A DNA stretch of 64,000 nucleotides from Minisyncoccota bacterium (GCA_036405415.1 DASWXP010000002.1:272351-336350); one strand, 5' to 3'. Shown: positions 20,530 to 61,234, counted from the stretch's first letter. Translations and numbers: made by a program. Notes: generated by a model not told the origin, from the sequence alone.

Positions 20530-20844
20530 GGACCCTGGCCTGACGACCGCTGCCCTAGGCAGAGGAAAGTCCGAACACAGGCTCACCTTGTGTGAGCAGT
20601 CTGGTAGCAGGTAACGCCTGTCCGCCGTAAGGCGCGAGGTGCGAACAGAAACGACGGATGCCGAAAGGCTACGTACTCTCCTTTGGAGAGTGTCCTAAGG
20701 GCGACCTTAGGCTGAAACGGCTAAATCCTTACCGCTGTGCAAGGCCGTGCCCATCATTGTGTGGGAGCGCCGCTCGAGGTGCGTGGCGACACGCATCCCA
20801 GATAGATGGTCGTCCGCGACAGAATTCGGCTTATGACCAGGATC
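20530..20844 (+). ncRNA. rnpB: RNase P RNA, bacterial type A (rnpB), compact form
   Basis: Conserved AGGAAAGTCCG (P4 5' strand), GGTAACGCC, AGGGCG and the 3' ACAGAATTCGGCTTAT (P4 3' strand). P1 pairs GGACCCTGGCC with GACCAGGATCC. A terminator follows at 20853. Confidence 0.7.
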
Positions 20845-20852
20845 CGCTTACA

Positions 20853-40107: not shown

Positions 40108-40149
40108 AAGATAAGTATCTGCCCTTAATGCTATGCCCCTAAGTATACC

Positions 40150-40180
40150 AAAACCCCGGGACAGGCTGTCCCGGGGTTTT
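40150..40180. terminator. Hairpin AAAACCCCGGGACAGG-CTGTCCCGGGGTTTT
   Basis: CCCGGG-family hairpin terminating the helicase gene. The TGGTATACT box of the dsbA-like gene abuts it. Confidence 0.55.
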
Positions 40181-40192
40181 GGCTCCTTAGTA

Positions 40193-54680: not shown

Positions 54681-55058
54681 ATGAGTACGCCCAAGAAAGT
54701 CCTTATCGTAGAGGACGACACGCTCCTTCTCGTCACGCTCACGCATCAGTTCGAAGACGCAGGATACACGGTGCTTTCCGCAAAGAACGGCGAGGACGGG
54801 GTCTCGACCTACCTCTCTGAGAAGCCCGATGCGGTGGTCATGGACGTGATGATGCCGCGTAAGGACGGCGTGGAGATGCTCGAAGAGATCCGGGAGAAGG
54901 CTCCTGACCACAAGGCTCCGATCATCGTGCTCAGCAATGCAAACGATATGGAGTACGTCGCGCGTGCAATGAGCCAGGGAGCGGTAGCCTATCTGCTCAA
55001 GTCGGACCGCCAGATCGACAGCGTCGTGAAGCTCGTCGACGAGCGCCTACGCGCATAG
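54681..55058 (+). CDS. Single-domain response regulator (CheY-like receiver)
   Basis: The translation has the receiver motifs (VLIVEDD acidic pocket, phospho-acceptor Asp in VVMDVMMP) and a conserved Lys. The ATG is 7 nt after TGGTACACT. Confidence 0.85.
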   Translation: MSTPKKVLIVEDDTLLLVTLTHQFEDAGYTVLSAKNGEDGVSTYLSEKPDAVVMDVMMPRKDGVEMLEEIREKAPDHKAPIIVLSNANDMEYVARAMSQGAVAYLLKSDRQIDSVVKLVDERLRA

Positions 55059-56405
55059 TGGCAGCGATAGCGTGAACGTAGAACCCTCTCCCTCGACGGA
55101 AGAGACGGTTACGGCGCCTCCATGCAGCACCGCTGCTTTCTTCACCAGATAGAGTCCGAGCCCGGTACCGTATTCTCCCGAGCGAATCGCTTCCTTGGTG
55201 CGATGGTACCCTGCGAATATCTTCTCCTGGTCCTCCGGAGCTATCCCCTTTCCTTGATCGGTTACTGAAAGCTGGTGCATGCCTGCCGCTCTCTTGTAGC
55301 TGATTCTGACCGCGCTTCCCTCGCGCGTGTACTTCACCGCGTTCGTGAGGAGATTGAAGAGCGCATGATGGAGCATCTGGCGGTCTGCACTCAGGGTGCC
55401 TGCATCTGCGAACAAAGGATCCACGTCGATCGATACGTGCCGCTCTTGTGCAGAAAGCGCGAGACTGTCGGCGATGTCTTCCACGAAGTCGCGCAGGTCG
55501 ATCTCCTCAGGACGCAGCCTTGCGGTAGTGCCACCCTCCAGCGCGGTCAGGTCGAGGAGATTGTTCACGCGCCCGATGAGTCCGAGGCAGCTCTCATGCA
55601 CGAGAGCGAGCACGGTCCTAGTCTTCGGATTAAGAGGCGGGTTCTGTCGCTTCAGCAGCCCTTCGATCGCCCAGCGGATGCCGGTAAGCGGCGTGCGAAT
55701 CTCATGCGAGGCGATCGAGAGGAATTCCGATTTCTGCTCAAGGTACGCGGTCTCGCGCCTGCGGGTACGCTCCGTAGCGATGATAACGAGCACGAGAAGG
55801 AGCGAGACGAGCACCGGGAGCGACGCATAGGCTATCGCGTCGCCGAGATACCGGTTTGCCGGAAGGTCCATGCCGAGCATGGCGACCACCGTCCCCGCCT
55901 CGTCTATAACCGGCGCGTATCCTGAGATCCAGAGCCCCCAGCGGTCCTGGTCAGGCCCTTCCGTGCGGCGCCTGCCATCTTCAAAGAGCGCCTGCATCGC
56001 CGGGGTCGCCTCGTAGTAGACCTGGCCAGGCGGCGAGTAGTCAGCGGACTCTGCCGGCTCTGAGTCCGCGTAAAAGAAGAGATTTCCCTCTGCATTCTTT
56101 CCGATCACATATAGGAATCGTGCATCCCCGTTAACCGACCGCATCTTCGTAAGGAAGAGCTTGAGCGACTCGTACGGCGGCGTGCCGAGGTCATTCTCGG
56201 TTCCCGAGAGTTCTTGCAGCTCTTCCTGCGGCACCGCTACGGCTATGGTGGCGACACGCTCGAGGATATGCTCGCGTCCGGCGCGGTCTACCTGAGAGAA
56301 GACATAGAAGGCTGACACCGCGCCGATGAGCAGCACGAGCACTGCAAGGAGTATGGGTGCCAGACGCATGCGTCCGAATCTCTTGTTAGCCTCTGGGGTG
56401 AACAT
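55047..56405 (-). CDS. Sensor histidine kinase (2 TM, periplasmic domain, HisKA + HATPase_c)
   Basis: H-box SHEIRTPL plus N, G1 and G2 boxes. The real start MFTPEANKRFGRMRL is at 56405. Confidence 0.85.
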   Translation of the reverse strand: MFTPEANKRFGRMRLAPILLAVLVLLIGAVSAFYVFSQVDRAGREHILERVATIAVAVPQEELQELSGTENDLGTPPYESLKLFLTKMRSVNGDARFLYVIGKNAEGNLFFYADSEPAESADYSPPGQVYYEATPAMQALFEDGRRRTEGPDQDRWGLWISGYAPVIDEAGTVVAMLGMDLPANRYLGDAIAYASLPVLVSLLLVLVIIATERTRRRETAYLEQKSEFLSIASHEIRTPLTGIRWAIEGLLKRQNPPLNPKTRTVLALVHESCLGLIGRVNNLLDLTALEGGTTARLRPEEIDLRDFVEDIADSLALSAQERHVSIDVDPLFADAGTLSADRQMLHHALFNLLTNAVKYTREGSAVRISYKRAAGMHQLSVTDQGKGIAPEDQEKIFAGYHRTKEAIRSGEYGTGLGLYLVKKAAVLHGGAVTVSSVEGEGSTFTLSLPLCA

Positions 56406-56464
56406 GGTCTCAGTATAGTACGAGCGCGGAACCTTCGTTCCGCGCTCGTAGAGGAAAGCGGTCC

Positions 56465-57259
56465 CTAAAGGGCCCGGATGCTCTCGACACTGACCACGCC
56501 CTTCACGTCGTACTTCATCCACCAATCTGAGCTCAGTATCTCGATCGGCACGAGCGTACCGGTCACCTCGATACGAGCATCTCCGGACGCCGTCATCCGC
56601 TCCTCGTCCGAGAGCAATGCCAGGTCGAGCGCGTAGTTTGATCCGTCGTCTGTGCGGAGGCCCTGCGCGCACTCCTTGGTCTGCGGGCCGGTCGTGTCCT
56701 TGTGCGGAAGGCAGATTATGGTTCCGGCGAGCGTTGCCGGGTTCGGGAGCACGGCCGCTGAAGCGCCTTCTGCAACGAGTTCGAGGTCGTACGGGAGGCC
56801 TGATTCGATGTCGTTACCATTGATATCGAGTATGCGGATCGTGTCGGCATCGACACGGATGAAACGCTGCGATACTTCCCCGTCGCCTTTATAAAGCGCG
56901 TATACCGTCGCGTCAGGATTCGTTCCTGTTCCGCGTTCCGTGGTCCAGCGACCGGACTCAACGAACGGCTCCACATCCCGCTCGAGGTACGTGAGGGAAA
57001 GCTCGTACGTTCCCTCGGCGCTATAGGCGCTGTCCTGCATGAGCGTTAGGCGCTGCACGATGCCCGGGCAGTCCGCGCACGGAGTCGTACCTTCGAAGGT
57101 GCCGAGCAGCACGCCTTCTGATACGGACCGTTCCGTAAGGGATGCCGGCGGCGGCACAAACGCGAGCACGGCAAGGGCGAGCACTATGAACGCGCCGAGC
57201 GCGATGATCTGGTTCTTGGTCATATGCTTTAAGGATAGCAAGGTCGCGAATGCGTTCAT
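56465..57259 (-). CDS. NlpE N-domain-like lipoprotein/secreted protein
   Basis: Signal/anchor, then GTTPCADCPGIVQRLTL resembling the NlpE N-terminal CXXC region. Directly upstream of the histidine kinase. Confidence 0.5.
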   Translation of the reverse strand: MNAFATLLSLKHMTKNQIIALGAFIVLALAVLAFVPPPASLTERSVSEGVLLGTFEGTTPCADCPGIVQRLTLMQDSAYSAEGTYELSLTYLERDVEPFVESGRWTTERGTGTNPDATVYALYKGDGEVSQRFIRVDADTIRILDINGNDIESGLPYDLELVAEGASAAVLPNPATLAGTIICLPHKDTTGPQTKECAQGLRTDDGSNYALDLALLSDEERMTASGDARIEVTGTLVPIEILSSDWWMKYDVKGVVSVESIRAL

Positions 57260-57278
57260 CCCACCCCCTGCATAACCT

Positions 57279-57638
57279 CTAGCGGAACCCACGGATGATG
57301 AGATCGCTGAATCCCCAGAGCGATAAGAGCGCGGTGAGCACTACGATCATACCGGTAAACGGAAGCGTTACCGGCATGCCGAGACCGTAGTGCCAGTACG
57401 CGGCACAGAGGAACCCTGTGATACCAATCACGATGTCGAGAACGACGTTCGGAGTGACCTCGATGATCTTGAGGAGCCATTCATACACTTCCCAGAGGAT
57501 TACAAGCACTATGGCGATACCGAACGCCCATGCAAATGAGAATCCGAGCCAGAAGAGCCCGGTACCGATGAGAATCCCTGACAGGAAATGCACCACGGAC
57601 CAGAGGTCCACGTACCGGCCGTGCTTCCAGGTATCCAT
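57279..57638 (-). CDS. Hypothetical 4-TM membrane protein
   Basis: 119 aa, hydrophobic, with host-like codon usage. Confidence 0.45.
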   Translation of the reverse strand: MDTWKHGRYVDLWSVVHFLSGILIGTGLFWLGFSFAWAFGIAIVLVILWEVYEWLLKIIEVTPNVVLDIVIGITGFLCAAYWHYGLGMPVTLPFTGMIVVLTALLSLWGFSDLIIRGFR

Positions 57639-57673: not shown

Positions 57674-58327
57674 ATGTTCCACCAGATAGAAGCGCTCATA
57701 CTCTCCTACGCTCCCCTACTGCCTTTGCCTGCGTTCGCAGCGCTCGCATCGTTTGCGGAAGAGATCGTCGCGCCGATACCGTCGGGCCCCGTGATGCTTA
57801 TCACCGGCACGCTCGCGCAGGTGCAGGGCTATACACTTCCCCTTCTCGTGGGTCTCGCGCTCGTCGCAGCCGTAGGCAAGCTCGCAGGATCGCTCGTCGT
57901 GTACTTCATCGCCGACAAGGCCGAGGACGTGTTCGCGGCGCGCTTCGCGAAATTCGTCGGGGTCTCGCATGAAGAGCTCGAGCGGTTCGGTTCGAGGCTG
58001 GGCAACGGCTGGAAAGACTACATGCTCCTCACGCTCCTGCGTACGCTTCCGTTCGTACCGAGCGTCGTTGTCTCGTTCGGGGCAGGCATGCTCAAGGTGC
58101 GGCTGAAGCTGTTTATCTTCGCGACCTTCATAGGCTCAATACTTCGCGATTTCACATTCCTCTATGCCGGCTACGCCGGACTCGCGTATGCGGAGCAACT
58201 CATGGAGCAGTTCTCGACGCTCGAATCCATCGGCCAGGTAGCGATAGCAAGCGCTGTCGCGCTCGCGCTCTTCGTATTGATATTCGTTCGCTACCGGAAG
58301 CGTCGCGCTACCACCACGTCCCGCTGA
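57674..58327 (+). CDS. DedA/SNARE-associated (VTT domain) family membrane protein
   Basis: DedA-family pattern (FIGSILRDFTFLYAGY plus re-entrant loop motifs), 217 aa. Confidence 0.75.
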   Translation: MFHQIEALILSYAPLLPLPAFAALASFAEEIVAPIPSGPVMLITGTLAQVQGYTLPLLVGLALVAAVGKLAGSLVVYFIADKAEDVFAARFAKFVGVSHEELERFGSRLGNGWKDYMLLTLLRTLPFVPSVVVSFGAGMLKVRLKLFIFATFIGSILRDFTFLYAGYAGLAYAEQLMEQFSTLESIGQVAIASAVALALFVLIFVRYRKRRATTTSR

Positions 58328-60659
58328 CGCCGAGCGCTTTCATCTTCGCGCGCGTGAGCGGACCGAAGTATCCGACGGACGGAGAGATGCCGTTCGCGGC
58401 CTGGAAGCGTGCGAGCGCGCTCCTGGTGAGTGCTCCGAAGAACATCGTCTCGCTTCCTGGAGCCCCGAGTCCCTCGGCTGCGAGCGCGAAGCCGTTTCCG
58501 TTCAGGAGCTTCTGGAGCATCCGCACGTCCTCCCCATCCATGGAGGTCTCAAGGTCTCGGACCTGAACCGTCCCGGACGCAGCTACCGCGCTCGGGAAGA
58601 GGCGCGGCCACTCGGCCTTAAGCGCATCCGCTTCCGCTACCTTGCCCATGTCCGCGAGGTTCCTCACGCGGGACGCGATAGAGCCTCCGCTGCGGCTTCC
58701 GGTTGAGCCGGACTCGGCCGCCGGCACCGTGCCGAATATCGCGAAGATCGAGAAGTTCGGCGTGTCGCAGGTTATGGTGTTGGCTGCCATGTCGAGACTG
58801 CAGCCTGAGAGCTGTTCCCACGCATTGTCATGATAGTGGTGCATGGTGAGCGTGCGCTCATCGAGCCCCGCGATATCCTCGTCGGTATAGGTGTAGGTGA
58901 TCGTCACCGGATGATCGAACGAGTCGAGCACGGTGGTGGAGTTCACGAGCGCCGTCACGTTGAACGCGACTGCTGCTGCGCTATAGAGGCTCCCGGGAAG
59001 GCCGATCTCCGTGAGTATCGGTTCAGATTCCTGCGCATGGATCTGGATCACTACCGTAGAGCTCGTGGCGGTGAAGTTCGCGGGAGTAGCGACGGAGATC
59101 GAGCGTCCTGAATCGGTAAGAGTTGTGGTGGTAGTAGCGTTCGCGGCAACCGAGTTGGTGGTCGCAAGCCGCGGCTCTGCCCCTACGCAGCCAAGCGTCG
59201 TGAAGCTTGCGGGGGTCGAGGTAGCGCGATTCCCCGCAGCGTCTGCCGAGGTGACCTTGTACGCATACGTGGTGCAGGACGAGAGGCCGGAGAGCGACGC
59301 GGTATGGCTCGTGACGCGCGAGCTCGTGTCGGTCTCGCTGGTGGTGCTTGCGTATCCGGTGCCTACCGAGTACACCGCCTTGGTCGAGGACTGCTCGTTC
59401 GTCGTCCAGGTGAGCGCTGCGGTCGTGGTAGCAGCGCTCGCTGAGACGCTCGAGATAACAGGCGCGGTCACGTCCGCGGTCGTGAAGGACCAGGTAGTCT
59501 TGCTGCTGATGCCTGCAAAGAAATTGTTCGATCCGTCACGGAACGCCGTGTTCGGTACGAGCACGTAGTACTGGACGCCTTCTTCGAGCGTGACGCTTGG
59601 GTTGATCGTGATGGACGATGAGCCGCCGCCAGACACGAGGTTGCCTGCCACATCTATGGACTCTACGATGCTGTCATCCGAGGATTTCCTTATGGTGATT
59701 GCGCCGGTGCTCGTGCTCACTGACTTGCTGAACCCGATCACGAGGTTCGCTGTGACGGACGCGGACGTATTGCCGTTCGTTGGGGAGAGCGAGGTTACGG
59801 CAGGCACGTCGGCCGTCACCACCGAGATGTTGGCTGCGACCACGGTCGGGTTCGCGCCAGGCGCGCCGAACTCTGCTACGTATCCCGGAAGGCTGAACCC
59901 TGAACACGGGAGGTCGTTCCACTTTCCAGTACCTCCCGTGAGGTACTGCGCGCAATCCTCGCCACCGGCATCATTCGGCTCCCCGGTACCCCAGTTCGCG
60001 TAATTGCCGCCGACGGTGCTTCCGCCTGACAGTCCGCTCCAGAACTGCGTGCCGTTCTCAGGTCCCGTCACCCATCGCCATGCTCCTTCCGAGGCGCTGT
60101 CGCTCGCACCCATCCACCCGGCGTTCGAGAGGCGCGCCGTAACGAAGCTGTTCTCGTTCGCAGACGAGATAGTGGCGAGATAGCCGGTAGCGCCGTAGAG
60201 CGTGAGCGCTTCCGCTTTCGTCTTGGCGGCGTTCCAGTCGCCCGCATCAGATATGTACTTGTAGAGGTGGCCGTTGTCCTCGAAGAAAACCTCGCCAGCT
60301 TCCACGAGCGATACCTCGAGCGTGTCGGTGCCCGTGCTTGCACGCGTGTACTTCAAGGTCGCGAGCGCCGCATTGATGTTCGCCACGGTACCGGTGAAAC
60401 TAACGCTCGTGCCTGAGGAACTCCCACTGAACGTGAGTCCCGTGGTGGTGGTCATGGAGAGCGTTCCGCTCGTAGCACGCAAGCGGACCGGAGTCGTAGA
60501 AGCTGCAGGTCCCACGATCTGGAAGCCGGTTATGGATGTCGCGACGTTCGGCGTGGTGGTCGCATTGTTGCCCGTTGTAAGCGTGAGCGCTGCGTGCGCC
60601 GAAGGTGCATACGAAAGGAGCGCCCCAAGTGCGAGGAAGGAAGCCAGGAACAGTTTCAT
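58308..60659 (-). CDS. Large secreted cell-wall-associated protein: signal peptide, C-type lectin domain (EPN/WND), Ig-like/FN3 repeats, C-terminal peptidoglycan-binding domain
   Basis: CTLD signature GWMGASDSASEGAWRWV...WGTGEPNDAGGEDCAQYLTGGTGKWNDLPCSG. Ser/Thr-rich beta-sandwich repeats. C-terminal PG_binding_1-like VRMLQKLLNGNGF...FQAANGISPSVGYFGPLTRAKMKAL. The ATG is 7 nt after GGTATACT. Confidence 0.8.
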   Translation of the reverse strand: MKLFLASFLALGALLSYAPSAHAALTLTTGNNATTTPNVATSITGFQIVGPAASTTPVRLRATSGTLSMTTTTGLTFSGSSSGTSVSFTGTVANINAALATLKYTRASTGTDTLEVSLVEAGEVFFEDNGHLYKYISDAGDWNAAKTKAEALTLYGATGYLATISSANENSFVTARLSNAGWMGASDSASEGAWRWVTGPENGTQFWSGLSGGSTVGGNYANWGTGEPNDAGGEDCAQYLTGGTGKWNDLPCSGFSLPGYVAEFGAPGANPTVVAANISVVTADVPAVTSLSPTNGNTSASVTANLVIGFSKSVSTSTGAITIRKSSDDSIVESIDVAGNLVSGGGSSSITINPSVTLEEGVQYYVLVPNTAFRDGSNNFFAGISSKTTWSFTTADVTAPVISSVSASAATTTAALTWTTNEQSSTKAVYSVGTGYASTTSETDTSSRVTSHTASLSGLSSCTTYAYKVTSADAAGNRATSTPASFTTLGCVGAEPRLATTNSVAANATTTTTLTDSGRSISVATPANFTATSSTVVIQIHAQESEPILTEIGLPGSLYSAAAVAFNVTALVNSTTVLDSFDHPVTITYTYTDEDIAGLDERTLTMHHYHDNAWEQLSGCSLDMAANTITCDTPNFSIFAIFGTVPAAESGSTGSRSGGSIASRVRNLADMGKVAEADALKAEWPRLFPSAVAASGTVQVRDLETSMDGEDVRMLQKLLNGNGFALAAEGLGAPGSETMFFGALTRSALARFQAANGISPSVGYFGPLTRAKMKALGVSGTWW

Positions 60660-60688
60660 GAAGAAAAGTATACCCCACCCAAGTGGTG

Positions 60689-61234
60689 CTACACGAGCAG
60701 TACCTTCAGTGCGAGCAGCATTATAACGAGCGCTCCCGCTATCTCGAGCTTGGTGCCGATCAGGTGCTTGATATGCCTTCCAACGTAGATGCCGCAAAGG
60801 CAGGCAGCAAACGTGACGAGACCGATGGCAAGCACGGCGAACGAGAGTGACACCGGGATGAACGTGAACGATATGCCCGCGACAAGCGCGTCGATGCTCG
60901 TCGCAACCGCAAGTGCGATGAGGGTCTTGGTACGGAGTATGTTCCGTTCTTCATCTTCACTCTCAGGACCGAGCGCTTCCTTGAGCATCTTGAGTCCTAC
61001 GAGCATGAGGAGCGTGAAGCCGATAAGGTTCCCGTATGCAGCAAGCGGGCTCTGGAACGCGAGTCCTCCGGCCCAGCCGATGAGCGGCATCATTCCCTGG
61101 AACAGGCCTAAGACGCCCGCGATATAGACCGCGCGGGTATGCGTGATGCGGTTGAGCGCTCCGGCACCGACCGCAACCACTACCGCATCGAGCGACAGCC
61201 CGACGGCAAGAATAAGAATCTCTACAGGAGACAT
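60689..61234 (-). CDS. mntP: Manganese efflux pump MntP
   Basis: Duplicated DUF204 repeats and 6 TM segments in 181 aa. SD present. Confidence 0.8.
   Translation of the reverse strand: MSPVEILILAVGLSLDAVVVAVGAGALNRITHTRAVYIAGVLGLFQGMMPLIGWAGGLAFQSPLAAYGNLIGFTLLMLVGLKMLKEALGPESEDEERNILRTKTLIALAVATSIDALVAGISFTFIPVSLSFAVLAIGLVTFAACLCGIYVGRHIKHLIGTKLEIAGALVIMLLALKVLLV

Follow-up and report, generated by a model that had tools for sequence, protein, structure and literature searches.

A canonical long-loop C-type lectin domain in a predicted wall-anchored surface protein of Paceibacteria

A 64,000-nucleotide stretch of the genome of a Minisyncoccota bacterium (GCA_036405415.1, DASWXP010000002.1:272351-336350; hereafter the window) encodes, on its minus strand, a protein of 783 residues whose head contains a canonical, long-loop C-type lectin domain (CTLD) with a mannose-type (EPN/WND) motif. 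The protein is modular: a Sec signal peptide is followed by an N-terminal β-domain, the CTLD, a Big_5 domain, an fn3-like domain, a third β-sandwich, a linker, and a PG_binding_1 domain. This architecture, the fold, the conservation of all ligand residues, and the swappable nature of the C-terminal envelope anchor are established here. The reading that we favor, and hold to be probable, is that of a Sec-exported, noncovalently wall-tethered, Ca2+-dependent lectin with which the small Paceibacteria cell most likely attaches to a conserved glycan, whether of a partner or host cell or of a polysaccharide matrix. An earlier note on the window had called the protein giant, which is an overstatement for 783 residues, and had proposed a glycan-binding adhesin, a role for which the protein appears to be a good candidate.

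The CTLD comprises residues 121–268 (59856..60299, minus strand) and was delimited by Pfam, by phmmer against the PDB, and by Foldseek. The Pfam Lectin_C profile (PF00059) matches residues 157–253 with 44.3 bits, against a curated gathering cut-off of 22.6. The PDB matches that phmmer lists for the protein are animal carbohydrate-recognition domains (CRDs) only, namely those of DC-SIGNR, DC-SIGN, CD23, MBP-A/C, SP-D, and langerin, with E-values down to 3e-8, and in these alignments the WMG, EPN, EDC, and WND motifs and the cysteine that follows are in register with the animal domains. AlphaFold2, given the ortholog alignment, produced a full-length model with a mean pLDDT (predicted local distance difference test score) of 91.1; within it, the CTLD has values of 86–97 and adopts the double-loop α/β fold with a long loop region. 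Foldseek overlays the CTLD on CEL-I, the aggrecan CRD, MBP-C (1kza, 1rdi, 1bv4), and MBP-A (2msb) with target template modeling (TM) scores of 0.73–0.89 and root mean square deviations of 2.3–5.0 Å, the values for MBP-C and MBP-A being 0.86–0.89 and 2.3–3.6 Å. No prokaryotic lectin-domain structure is found among the PDB matches listed (50 by fold and 60 by sequence). The mannose-type C-type lectin domain proposed in the earlier note is therefore recovered by profile, its EPN and WND motifs align with those of DC-SIGNR, DC-SIGN, CD23, and MBP, and the model superposes on MBP-A/C and CEL-I; the Big_5 and PG_binding_1 profiles also score above their cut-offs.

The sequence motifs GWMGASDSASEGAWRWV (WIGxxD-like), GEPNDAGGEDC, and KWNDLPC are present where the earlier note had put them, with EPN at 59973-59981 and WND at 59913-59921 on the minus strand. 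Three elements of the binding site were delimited by their invariance and by alignment with DC-SIGNR, all on the same strand. D187 and E191 of the DSASE segment (60087..60101) align with the D and E of the DC-SIGNR sequence SDLNQEG and are predicted ligands of an auxiliary Ca2+ site; together with D235, we take them to correspond to auxiliary site 1 of the published DC-SIGN and MBP-A structures. E227-P228-N229 and E234-D235-C236 (59952..59981), aligned with EPN..EDC, form the mannose-type motif with predicted principal Ca2+ site ligands and the first cysteine of a retained disulfide, the second cysteine of which is C252, in the element that carries the WND motif, W247-N248-D249 (59904..59921). 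The principal Ca2+ and sugar ligands are presumably the E and N of EPN, the following E, and the N and D of WND, as in the published structures of MBP-A and DC-SIGN. In an alignment of 121 orthologs, the invariant columns include W182, D187, E191, W194, W196, G199, P200, W223, E227, P228, N229, E234, D235, C236, W247, N248, D249, and C252, and position 230, which follows EPN and is a further candidate position of the auxiliary site, is D, Q, or N. Because the Ca2+ and sugar ligands are invariant despite a mean column identity of 32%, the binding site appears to be under purifying selection. An EPN motif specifies sugars with equatorial 3,4-diols; the predicted ligands of the window protein are mannose-, GlcNAc-, glucose-, and fucose-type sugars, which would be bound in a Ca2+-dependent manner.

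Similar to the animal mannose-type CRDs (MBP-A/MBP-C, DC-SIGN/DC-SIGNR, SP-D, and CEL-I), the window CTLD has the Lectin_C profile, the double-loop fold with its long loop, a WIGL-like WMGA motif, the EPN, E, and WND elements, both sets of Ca2+ ligands, and the C2–C3 disulfide, at 23–29% identity and with target TM scores of up to 0.89. The main differences are that the window protein has neither the C1–C4 disulfide nor a coiled-coil neck or collagen stalk, that a conserved insertion of 13 residues (WSGLSGGSTVGGN) lengthens its long loop relative to that of DC-SIGNR, that an extra β-domain precedes the CTLD and bacterial Ig-like domains and a peptidoglycan anchor follow it, and that it is encoded by a member of the Patescibacteria. 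Of the four conserved CTLD cysteines, only the C2–C3 pair (C236–C252) is present, and the invariant A149 and an alanine or valine at position 262 (A262 in the window protein) stand in place of the C1–C4 disulfide. This absence is a deviation of the subfamily and leaves the profile and fold matches unaffected. Both the missing disulfide and the family-specific insertion would fit a CTLD that serves as a scaffold without binding sugar, and that either binds protein or has a purely structural Ca2+ site, as is known for numerous animal C-type lectin-like domains; in the CTLD superfamily, members that bind sugar are a minority. We consider such a role quite improbable, since CTLDs that do not bind sugar have typically lost EPN/WND and the Ca2+ ligands, whereas here none of these varies among the 121 orthologs and nearly all of 77 distant relatives keep them.

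The N-terminal β-domain that precedes the CTLD (residues 24–120, 60300..60590, minus strand) was delimited from the AlphaFold2 model and ortholog conservation and belongs to no Pfam family. Modeled alone, it has a pLDDT of 88.9 and folds into a β-sandwich with one short helix (VANINAAL). Its sole convincing fold match in the PDB is the noncatalytic N-terminal domain of human B4GALNT1 (9h6j/k/l), with a Foldseek E-value of 9e-4, query TM scores of 0.65–0.75, and 20–22% identity; a profile built from 18 N-domains also ranked B4GALNT1 first, at a marginal E-value of 0.007. B4GALNT1 is the GM2/GD2 synthase, and the bacterial head thus pairs two domains known from animal glycobiology. The N-domain is the most conserved part of the protein and accompanies the CTLD in other phyla too. 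Relatives of the head are also found in very large proteins, some of which contain 8–9 copies of the CTLD or 27–31 copies of the N-domain. In three of these (P0123, 6674 residues; P0188, 4587 residues; P0190, 4891 residues), the 27–31 stretches that match the head query are mostly N-domain, from which it appears that this domain is also a tandem repeat unit of fibrillar proteins.

The head is distributed far more widely than the full-length protein. In a scan of one genome per GTDB species, at least 590 genomes contain a relative, and end-to-end matches are, among the matches listed, confined to metagenome-assembled genomes (MAGs) of the Patescibacteria type. Residues ~40–290 alone, which cover the N-domain and CTLD, have matches of 35–50% identity in Flavobacteriia, Cytophagia, cyanobacteria, planctomycetes, proteobacteria, Chloroflexota, and the archaea Methanolobus and Methanosarcinales. 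An exhaustive phmmer search with residues 24–270 against 1.84 billion cluster representatives (clusters at 50% identity) retrieved 631 clusters at E ≤ 1e-30 and 3,908 at E ≤ 1e-10. The earlier view that C-type lectins are rare in bacteria holds in that such domains are uncommon; with at least 590 GTDB species representatives and 631 clusters at the stricter threshold, they are not very rare. Among 77 CTLDs extracted from other prokaryotic loci, the EPN, WND, and D..E elements are nearly universal, the exceptions being a single QPD and a few degenerate domains; outside Patescibacteria, the C236–C252 pair is often lost. The head falls within a prokaryotic clade of canonical EPN C-type lectin domains that is widely distributed. 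A recent transfer from animals is not supported, the identity to animal CRDs being only 21–29% compared with the 35–50% seen within the cassette across many prokaryotic phyla. A 2022 review describes bacterial CTLDs as compact, loop-less domains (PMC9630629), a description that the N-domain–CTLD cassette contradicts. In the literature on prokaryotic canonical C-type lectins, no paper or experimental study on this family was found, and the window lectin is thus a member of a conserved Paceibacteria family that is visible in databases and apparently unstudied. We raise, tentatively and as a doubtful extension, the idea that the B4GALNT1-like N-domain and long-loop EPN CTLD form an ancient glycan-recognition cassette of bacteria and archaea, evolutionarily continuous with the Ca2+-dependent CRDs that textbooks treat as a metazoan invention, and that the wall-anchored version in Paceibacteria would be the primary lectin that recognizes a universal microbial glycan, such as GlcNAc- or mannose-bearing wall polymers, in episymbiotic attachment.

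Two other groups of proteins have domains of the same superfamily. The heads of intimin and invasin bind proteins and are located at the C terminus, and the anchor of these adhesins is an N-terminal outer-membrane barrel. Like the window protein, they are bacterial surface proteins with an Ig-like stalk and a CTLD-superfamily head. The polarity of the window protein is reversed and its CTLD is canonical, whereas the intimin and invasin heads are compact CTLDs with neither the long loop nor the Ca2+ site (PMC9630629). The second group comprises the variable proteins of diversity-generating retroelements (DGRs), such as Mtd, TvpA, and targets from archaea and the candidate phyla radiation (CPR), which share the C-type lectin fold superfamily and are frequent in Patescibacteria (PMC11661182, PMC8144416). 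Published work on C-type lectins in the CPR is mostly about such DGR proteins. That the window protein is such a variable protein with the C-type lectin (CLec) fold has a negligible probability. DGR proteins belong to another subclass that lacks EPN/WND and the Ca2+ site, and they are hypervariable and accompanied by a template repeat and a reverse transcriptase, features that were not seen for the window lectin. The 64-kb window contains neither a paralog nor a template repeat of the gene (secondary matches reach at most 22–30 nt), the ligand-binding residues are invariant rather than hypervariable, and the protein matches Lectin_C and the animal CRDs, not the Mtd/FGE-sulfatase type. The DGR assignment was rejected on the absence of the repeat and paralog from the window and on the invariant binding residues.

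C-terminal to the head, three β-sandwich domains form the predicted stalk (all coordinates on the minus strand). The first, at residues ~275–395 (59475..59837), is all-β in the model and is a bacterial Ig-like Big_5 domain (PF13205; residues 286–394, 42.5 bits against a cut-off of 23.6). The second, at residues ~400–490 (59190..59462), is fn3-like, as seen from a subthreshold fn3/Pur_ac_phosph_N Pfam match at residues 405–488 and from Foldseek, and C462 and C491 are invariant. The third, at residues ~495–645 (58725..59177), was delimited from the secondary structure of the AlphaFold2 model; C620 and C631 are invariant, and NCBIfam adds only a weak, subthreshold PGF_pre_PGF match at residues 598–643. 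Outside the CTLD, the model matches strings of fn3 and Ig domains in the PDB (Foldseek). The Ig-like repeats of the earlier note are thus β-sandwiches, three in number, and not repeats, since they are three different domains rather than copies of one unit. Residues 646–705 (58545..58724) constitute a flexible Gly/Ser linker with two short helices, identified from the model and from conservation; pLDDT is low at residues 650–659 and 691–695, and the linker is the least conserved region after the signal peptide.

The C-terminal module (58311..58544, minus strand) comprises a PG_binding_1 domain and a G-x-W-W tail. The Pfam PG_binding_1 profile (PF01471) matches residues 709–773 with 39.7 bits against a cut-off of 23, in agreement with the domain type assigned in the earlier note, and in the model the helices 710–721, 743–755, and 767–775 form a three-helix bundle. 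The last four residues, GTWW (58311-58322, minus strand), lie beyond the Pfam envelope. A G-x-W-W carboxyl terminus is present in 66 of the 121 orthologs, as GLWW in 39 of these, and could be a wall-binding or sorting motif. Patescibacteria relatives that share the head and stalk differ in the C-terminal module: one PG_binding_1 domain is present in the window protein and at locus L012, two are present at L016 and L017, an extra fn3 domain and LysM at L015, L018, L020, and L021, and a hydrophobic C-terminal (transmembrane) helix followed by basic residues at L030 and L033. This exchange of anchors among three solutions amounts to a natural experiment on anchoring in Patescibacteria. Elsewhere, the head is fused to CHU_C type IX sorting domains with Ig_7 or PKD (Bacteroidota), to DUF4347 with FG-GAP (cyanobacteria), and to PKD (Methanolobus). 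Because the C terminus of the relatives is always an envelope anchor or a sorting module, the C terminus of the window protein would be located at the wall of the producer, with the N-terminal head distal and facing outward. FtsZ and the peptidoglycan transglycosylase MltG/YceG are encoded in the window, and the organism therefore has a murein wall for binding; PG_binding_1 is predicted to tether the protein to the producer's own peptidoglycan.

For the complete protein, we infer its export and orientation, the binding of Ca2+ and of a class of sugars, and a role in adhesion as follows. The signal peptide would be cleaved at AHA|A, and the C-terminal PG_binding_1 domain would hold the mature protein on the peptidoglycan of the producing cell. 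The flexible linker and the three β-sandwich domains (third sandwich, fn3-like, and Big_5) would serve as a stalk that presents the distal head, composed of the N-terminal β-domain and the canonical CTLD. The head would bind sugars with equatorial 3-/4-hydroxyls (mannose, GlcNAc, glucose, or fucose type) via the principal Ca2+ site formed by E227, N229, E234, N248, and D249, and in this way the Paceibacteria cell would become attached to a partner cell, a host cell, or a polysaccharide matrix that carries a conserved glycan. MpPA14, a domain of the ice-binding adhesin of Marinomonas, works on the same principle: placed distally on a long repetitive stalk, it ligates vicinal hydroxyls of sugars via Ca2+, and its strongest ligands are fucose and GlcNAc (PMC8092209). 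For the window lectin, such binding is a prediction. MpPA14 differs in its unrelated fold (PA14), export by the RTX type I secretion system, and megadalton size. In cultured, methanogen-parasitic Paceibacteria, genes for secreted proteins that combine peptidoglycan-binding and Ig-like domains rank among those with the highest expression, and the proteins were put forward as attachment factors (Kuroda et al. 2024, PMC10936435); they have in common with the window protein the organism class, a signal peptide, both kinds of domain, and the proposed attachment role. Orthology with these proteins could not be established: PMX_810_sub_00350 (2079 nt) carries no Lectin_C annotation, and the term "lectin" is absent from the parts of the tables consulted. 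Discussion of surface lectins in the CPR has so far concerned concanavalin-like ones (PMC12911398).

Several observations weigh against the attachment reading. Given the absent C1–C4 disulfide and the 13-residue insertion in the long loop, the sugar specificity could differ from the animal paradigm. The neighborhood offers no partner gene that hints at function, since no recurrent neighbor of the lectin gene is present in 43 tabulated loci. In the phylum, experimental support for an attachment organelle is limited to type IV pili, on the basis of the Saccharimonadia isolates TM7x and TM7i (PMC13293708). Finally, mean ortholog identity to the window protein falls from the head to the anchor, being 74% for the N-domain, 64% for the CTLD, 64% for Big_5, 57% for the fn3-like domain, 55% for the third sandwich, 52% for PG_binding_1, 32% for the linker, and 22% for the signal peptide. 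Because the recognition end is the most constrained, the gradient argues for a conserved ligand, either a glycan common among microbes or glycans of the cell itself, rather than a fast-evolving, host-specific receptor.

It is mainly this constraint on the head that keeps a self-directed envelope organizer under consideration as an unlikely alternative. Here, the head would bind glycans of the producing cell, be it those of a glycosylated S-layer, a secondary wall polymer, or the GlcNAc of peptidoglycan, while PG_binding_1 binds peptidoglycan, and the protein would cross-link or space envelope layers. A head more conserved than the anchor is expected if the ligand is internal and coevolving, and the gene is conserved and apparently orthologous over its full length across many Paceibacteria at 50–92% identity, stands alone with a strong –10 box, and encodes a protein with 26% Ser+Thr, like many envelope proteins. 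Set against this, the same head is found on very different giant adhesin-like proteins and with sorting signals in unrelated phyla with different envelopes, which suggests an outward-facing recognition module, and in the model the flexible linker of ~60 residues and the three-domain stalk would project the head off the wall. A further alternative, which we regard as improbable, is the capture of glycans for nutrition, in which a cell-bound protein akin to a carbohydrate-binding module (CBM) would retain environmental or host polysaccharides for degradation and uptake. Patescibacteria are thought to depend on external polymers (PMC12911398), and the ortholog P0030 is encoded directly upstream of a glycoside hydrolase family 6 (GH6) gene. 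This linkage, however, was observed solely on the P0030 contigs (L003 and L004), no neighbor family recurs in the tabulated loci, and the neighbors in the window are MntP, DUF305, and a DedA-family protein. EPN C-type domains, moreover, bind terminal monosaccharides weakly, unlike CBMs on polysaccharide chains. Attachment to a conserved glycan outside the cell remains the reading that we prefer.

The gene itself consists of 783 codons and a stop (58308..60659, minus strand), and its limits were set from the open reading frame (ORF) list, the translation, Logan contigs, and 121 full-length orthologs. The minus-strand ORF runs from 58308 to 60797, with an upstream TTG start codon, and translation from the ATG at 60659, the end coordinate given in the earlier note, yields the 783-residue product. 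This ATG was taken as the start because the 121 aligned orthologs agree on it, all opening with a hydrophobic signal peptide of ~23 residues that ends in AxA|A. The identical protein, with the identical gene call, is present on independent Logan contigs. The signal peptide (residues 1–23, MKLFLASFLALGALLSYAPSAHA|A, 60591..60659, minus strand) was read from the sequence; residues 2–16 are helical in the AlphaFold2 model, and outside the AxA|A site it is weakly conserved. The protein is predicted to be exported by Sec with cleavage at AHA|A. The mature N terminus, ALTLT.G.NATTTPNVATSITGFQIVG, is nearly invariant among the orthologs, and the Ser+Thr content given above refers to the mature protein.

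The 120 best database homologs are all full-length, with 50–92% identity, 96–100% coverage, and the same Pfam string including PF00059. They come from metagenome genomes and, where named by the source, are assigned to Candidatus Paceibacterota/Pacebacteria, Minisyncoccota, or the "Patescibacteria group", in keeping with the small-genome lineage suggested in the earlier note. The "lectin-like" entries from Paceibacterota and Minisyncoccota MAGs belong to the same orthologous family and are alike end to end in architecture, with no substantive difference. Their names, which are automatic, read "lectin-like protein", "Ig-like domain-containing protein", or "peptidoglycan-binding protein" (e.g., P0022, P0030, P0041, and P0102). 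Several of the MAGs with full-length orthologs (L006-L008, L011, L012, L015, L018, and L020) are labeled "Candidatus Saccharibacteria" or "Gammaproteobacteria", and one is a 1.6 Mb "chromosome"; for this lectin family, these automated labels look unreliable.

Upstream of the gene, the octamer GGTATACT (60667..60674, minus strand) contains a –10-like box (TATACT at 60667-60672) 7 nt before the ATG and is a putative leaderless promoter on the strength of spacing statistics and ortholog loci. The def (44827) and DUF305 (61627) ATGs are each preceded by the same octamer at a distance of 6 nt; the window has four copies, compared with 0.53 expected, and three of these sit 6–7 nt before the ATGs of def, DUF305, and the lectin gene. 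The pattern TAnAnT-N6/7-ATG is found at 14 sites in the window, 12 of which open ORFs of at least 80 residues, whereas each other spacing from 0 to 30 has 0–4 sites. Examples of ATGs with a TAnAnT box 6–7 nt before them are 1437(+), 12430(-), 13624(-), 14451(-), 31495(+), 44827(-), 54681(+), 56405(-), 57638(-), and 61627(-). At the loci of lectin orthologs in L003, L005, L013, L016, L022, and others, TGnTATACT or TATAAT is located 6–9 nt before the start. The earlier proposal of a leaderless promoter shared with def and DUF305 thus stands as a prediction, the pattern being statistically real in the window and kept upstream of orthologs. The lectin gene has no Shine-Dalgarno sequence in the 13 nt before its ATG. 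The GGTATACT box has no –35 match, for which reason a generic sigma-70 scan passed over it. The scan instead flagged TCGAGA-16-TATAAT (60720-60747, minus strand), at chance frequency, inside the 3′ end of mntP and ~60 nt upstream of the lectin ATG; this site is a candidate for an alternative, leadered promoter. The spacing and ortholog patterns support leaderless expression as a habit of the lineage, in which leaderless mRNAs appear to be common. The fourth copy of the octamer lies behind a perfect GC-rich hairpin and T-run (ccccgggacagcctgtcccggggtttt; region 40142-40185, minus strand) and, being 34 nt before the ATG of the next ORF (40107), would give a leadered transcript.

The upstream neighbor on the same strand is mntP, separated by a gap of 28 nt, with the DUF305 and pirin genes further upstream. 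Downstream, a convergent DedA/VTT gene overlaps the lectin gene by 20 nt and is followed by genes for a small membrane protein, an NlpE-like protein, a histidine kinase, and a stand-alone receiver. Neighbors were analyzed by all-against-all ORF clustering of 84 loci and the window region, 43 of the loci being tabulated. Clusters of generic response regulators, histidine kinases, and ABC proteins recur at no more than 7–8 loci, and a conserved operon or set of partner genes was rejected, since no neighbor family recurs in the tabulated loci. The GH6 gene (8645-10405 in L003 and 5406-7166 in L004), directly downstream of the ortholog P0030, is the only carbohydrate-active neighbor among them. 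In the window, the NlpE-domain protein gene (56465-57292, minus strand) adjoins that of the histidine kinase (start most likely the ATG at 56405, minus strand) and that of the 125-residue stand-alone receiver (54681-55058, plus strand), and this cluster (54681-57292) may be an envelope-stress module; a kinase/regulator pair is also located near the lectin gene in L022 and L038. Elsewhere in the window, a bacterial class A RNase P RNA (20530-20849, plus strand) scores 106.6 against an Rfam threshold of 100 bits, and its 320 nt for a model of 367 positions are consistent with a reduced RNA in a small-genome lineage.

The finding bears on how Paceibacteria, the largest class of the CPR/Patescibacteria, recognize and hold partner cells. 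Canonical long-loop CTLDs that bear the Ca2+ site are widespread in prokaryotes and not confined to animals. In Paceibacteria, a conserved, single-gene, modular lectin with a predictable sugar class would provide an experimentally tractable handle on glycan recognition in the CPR.

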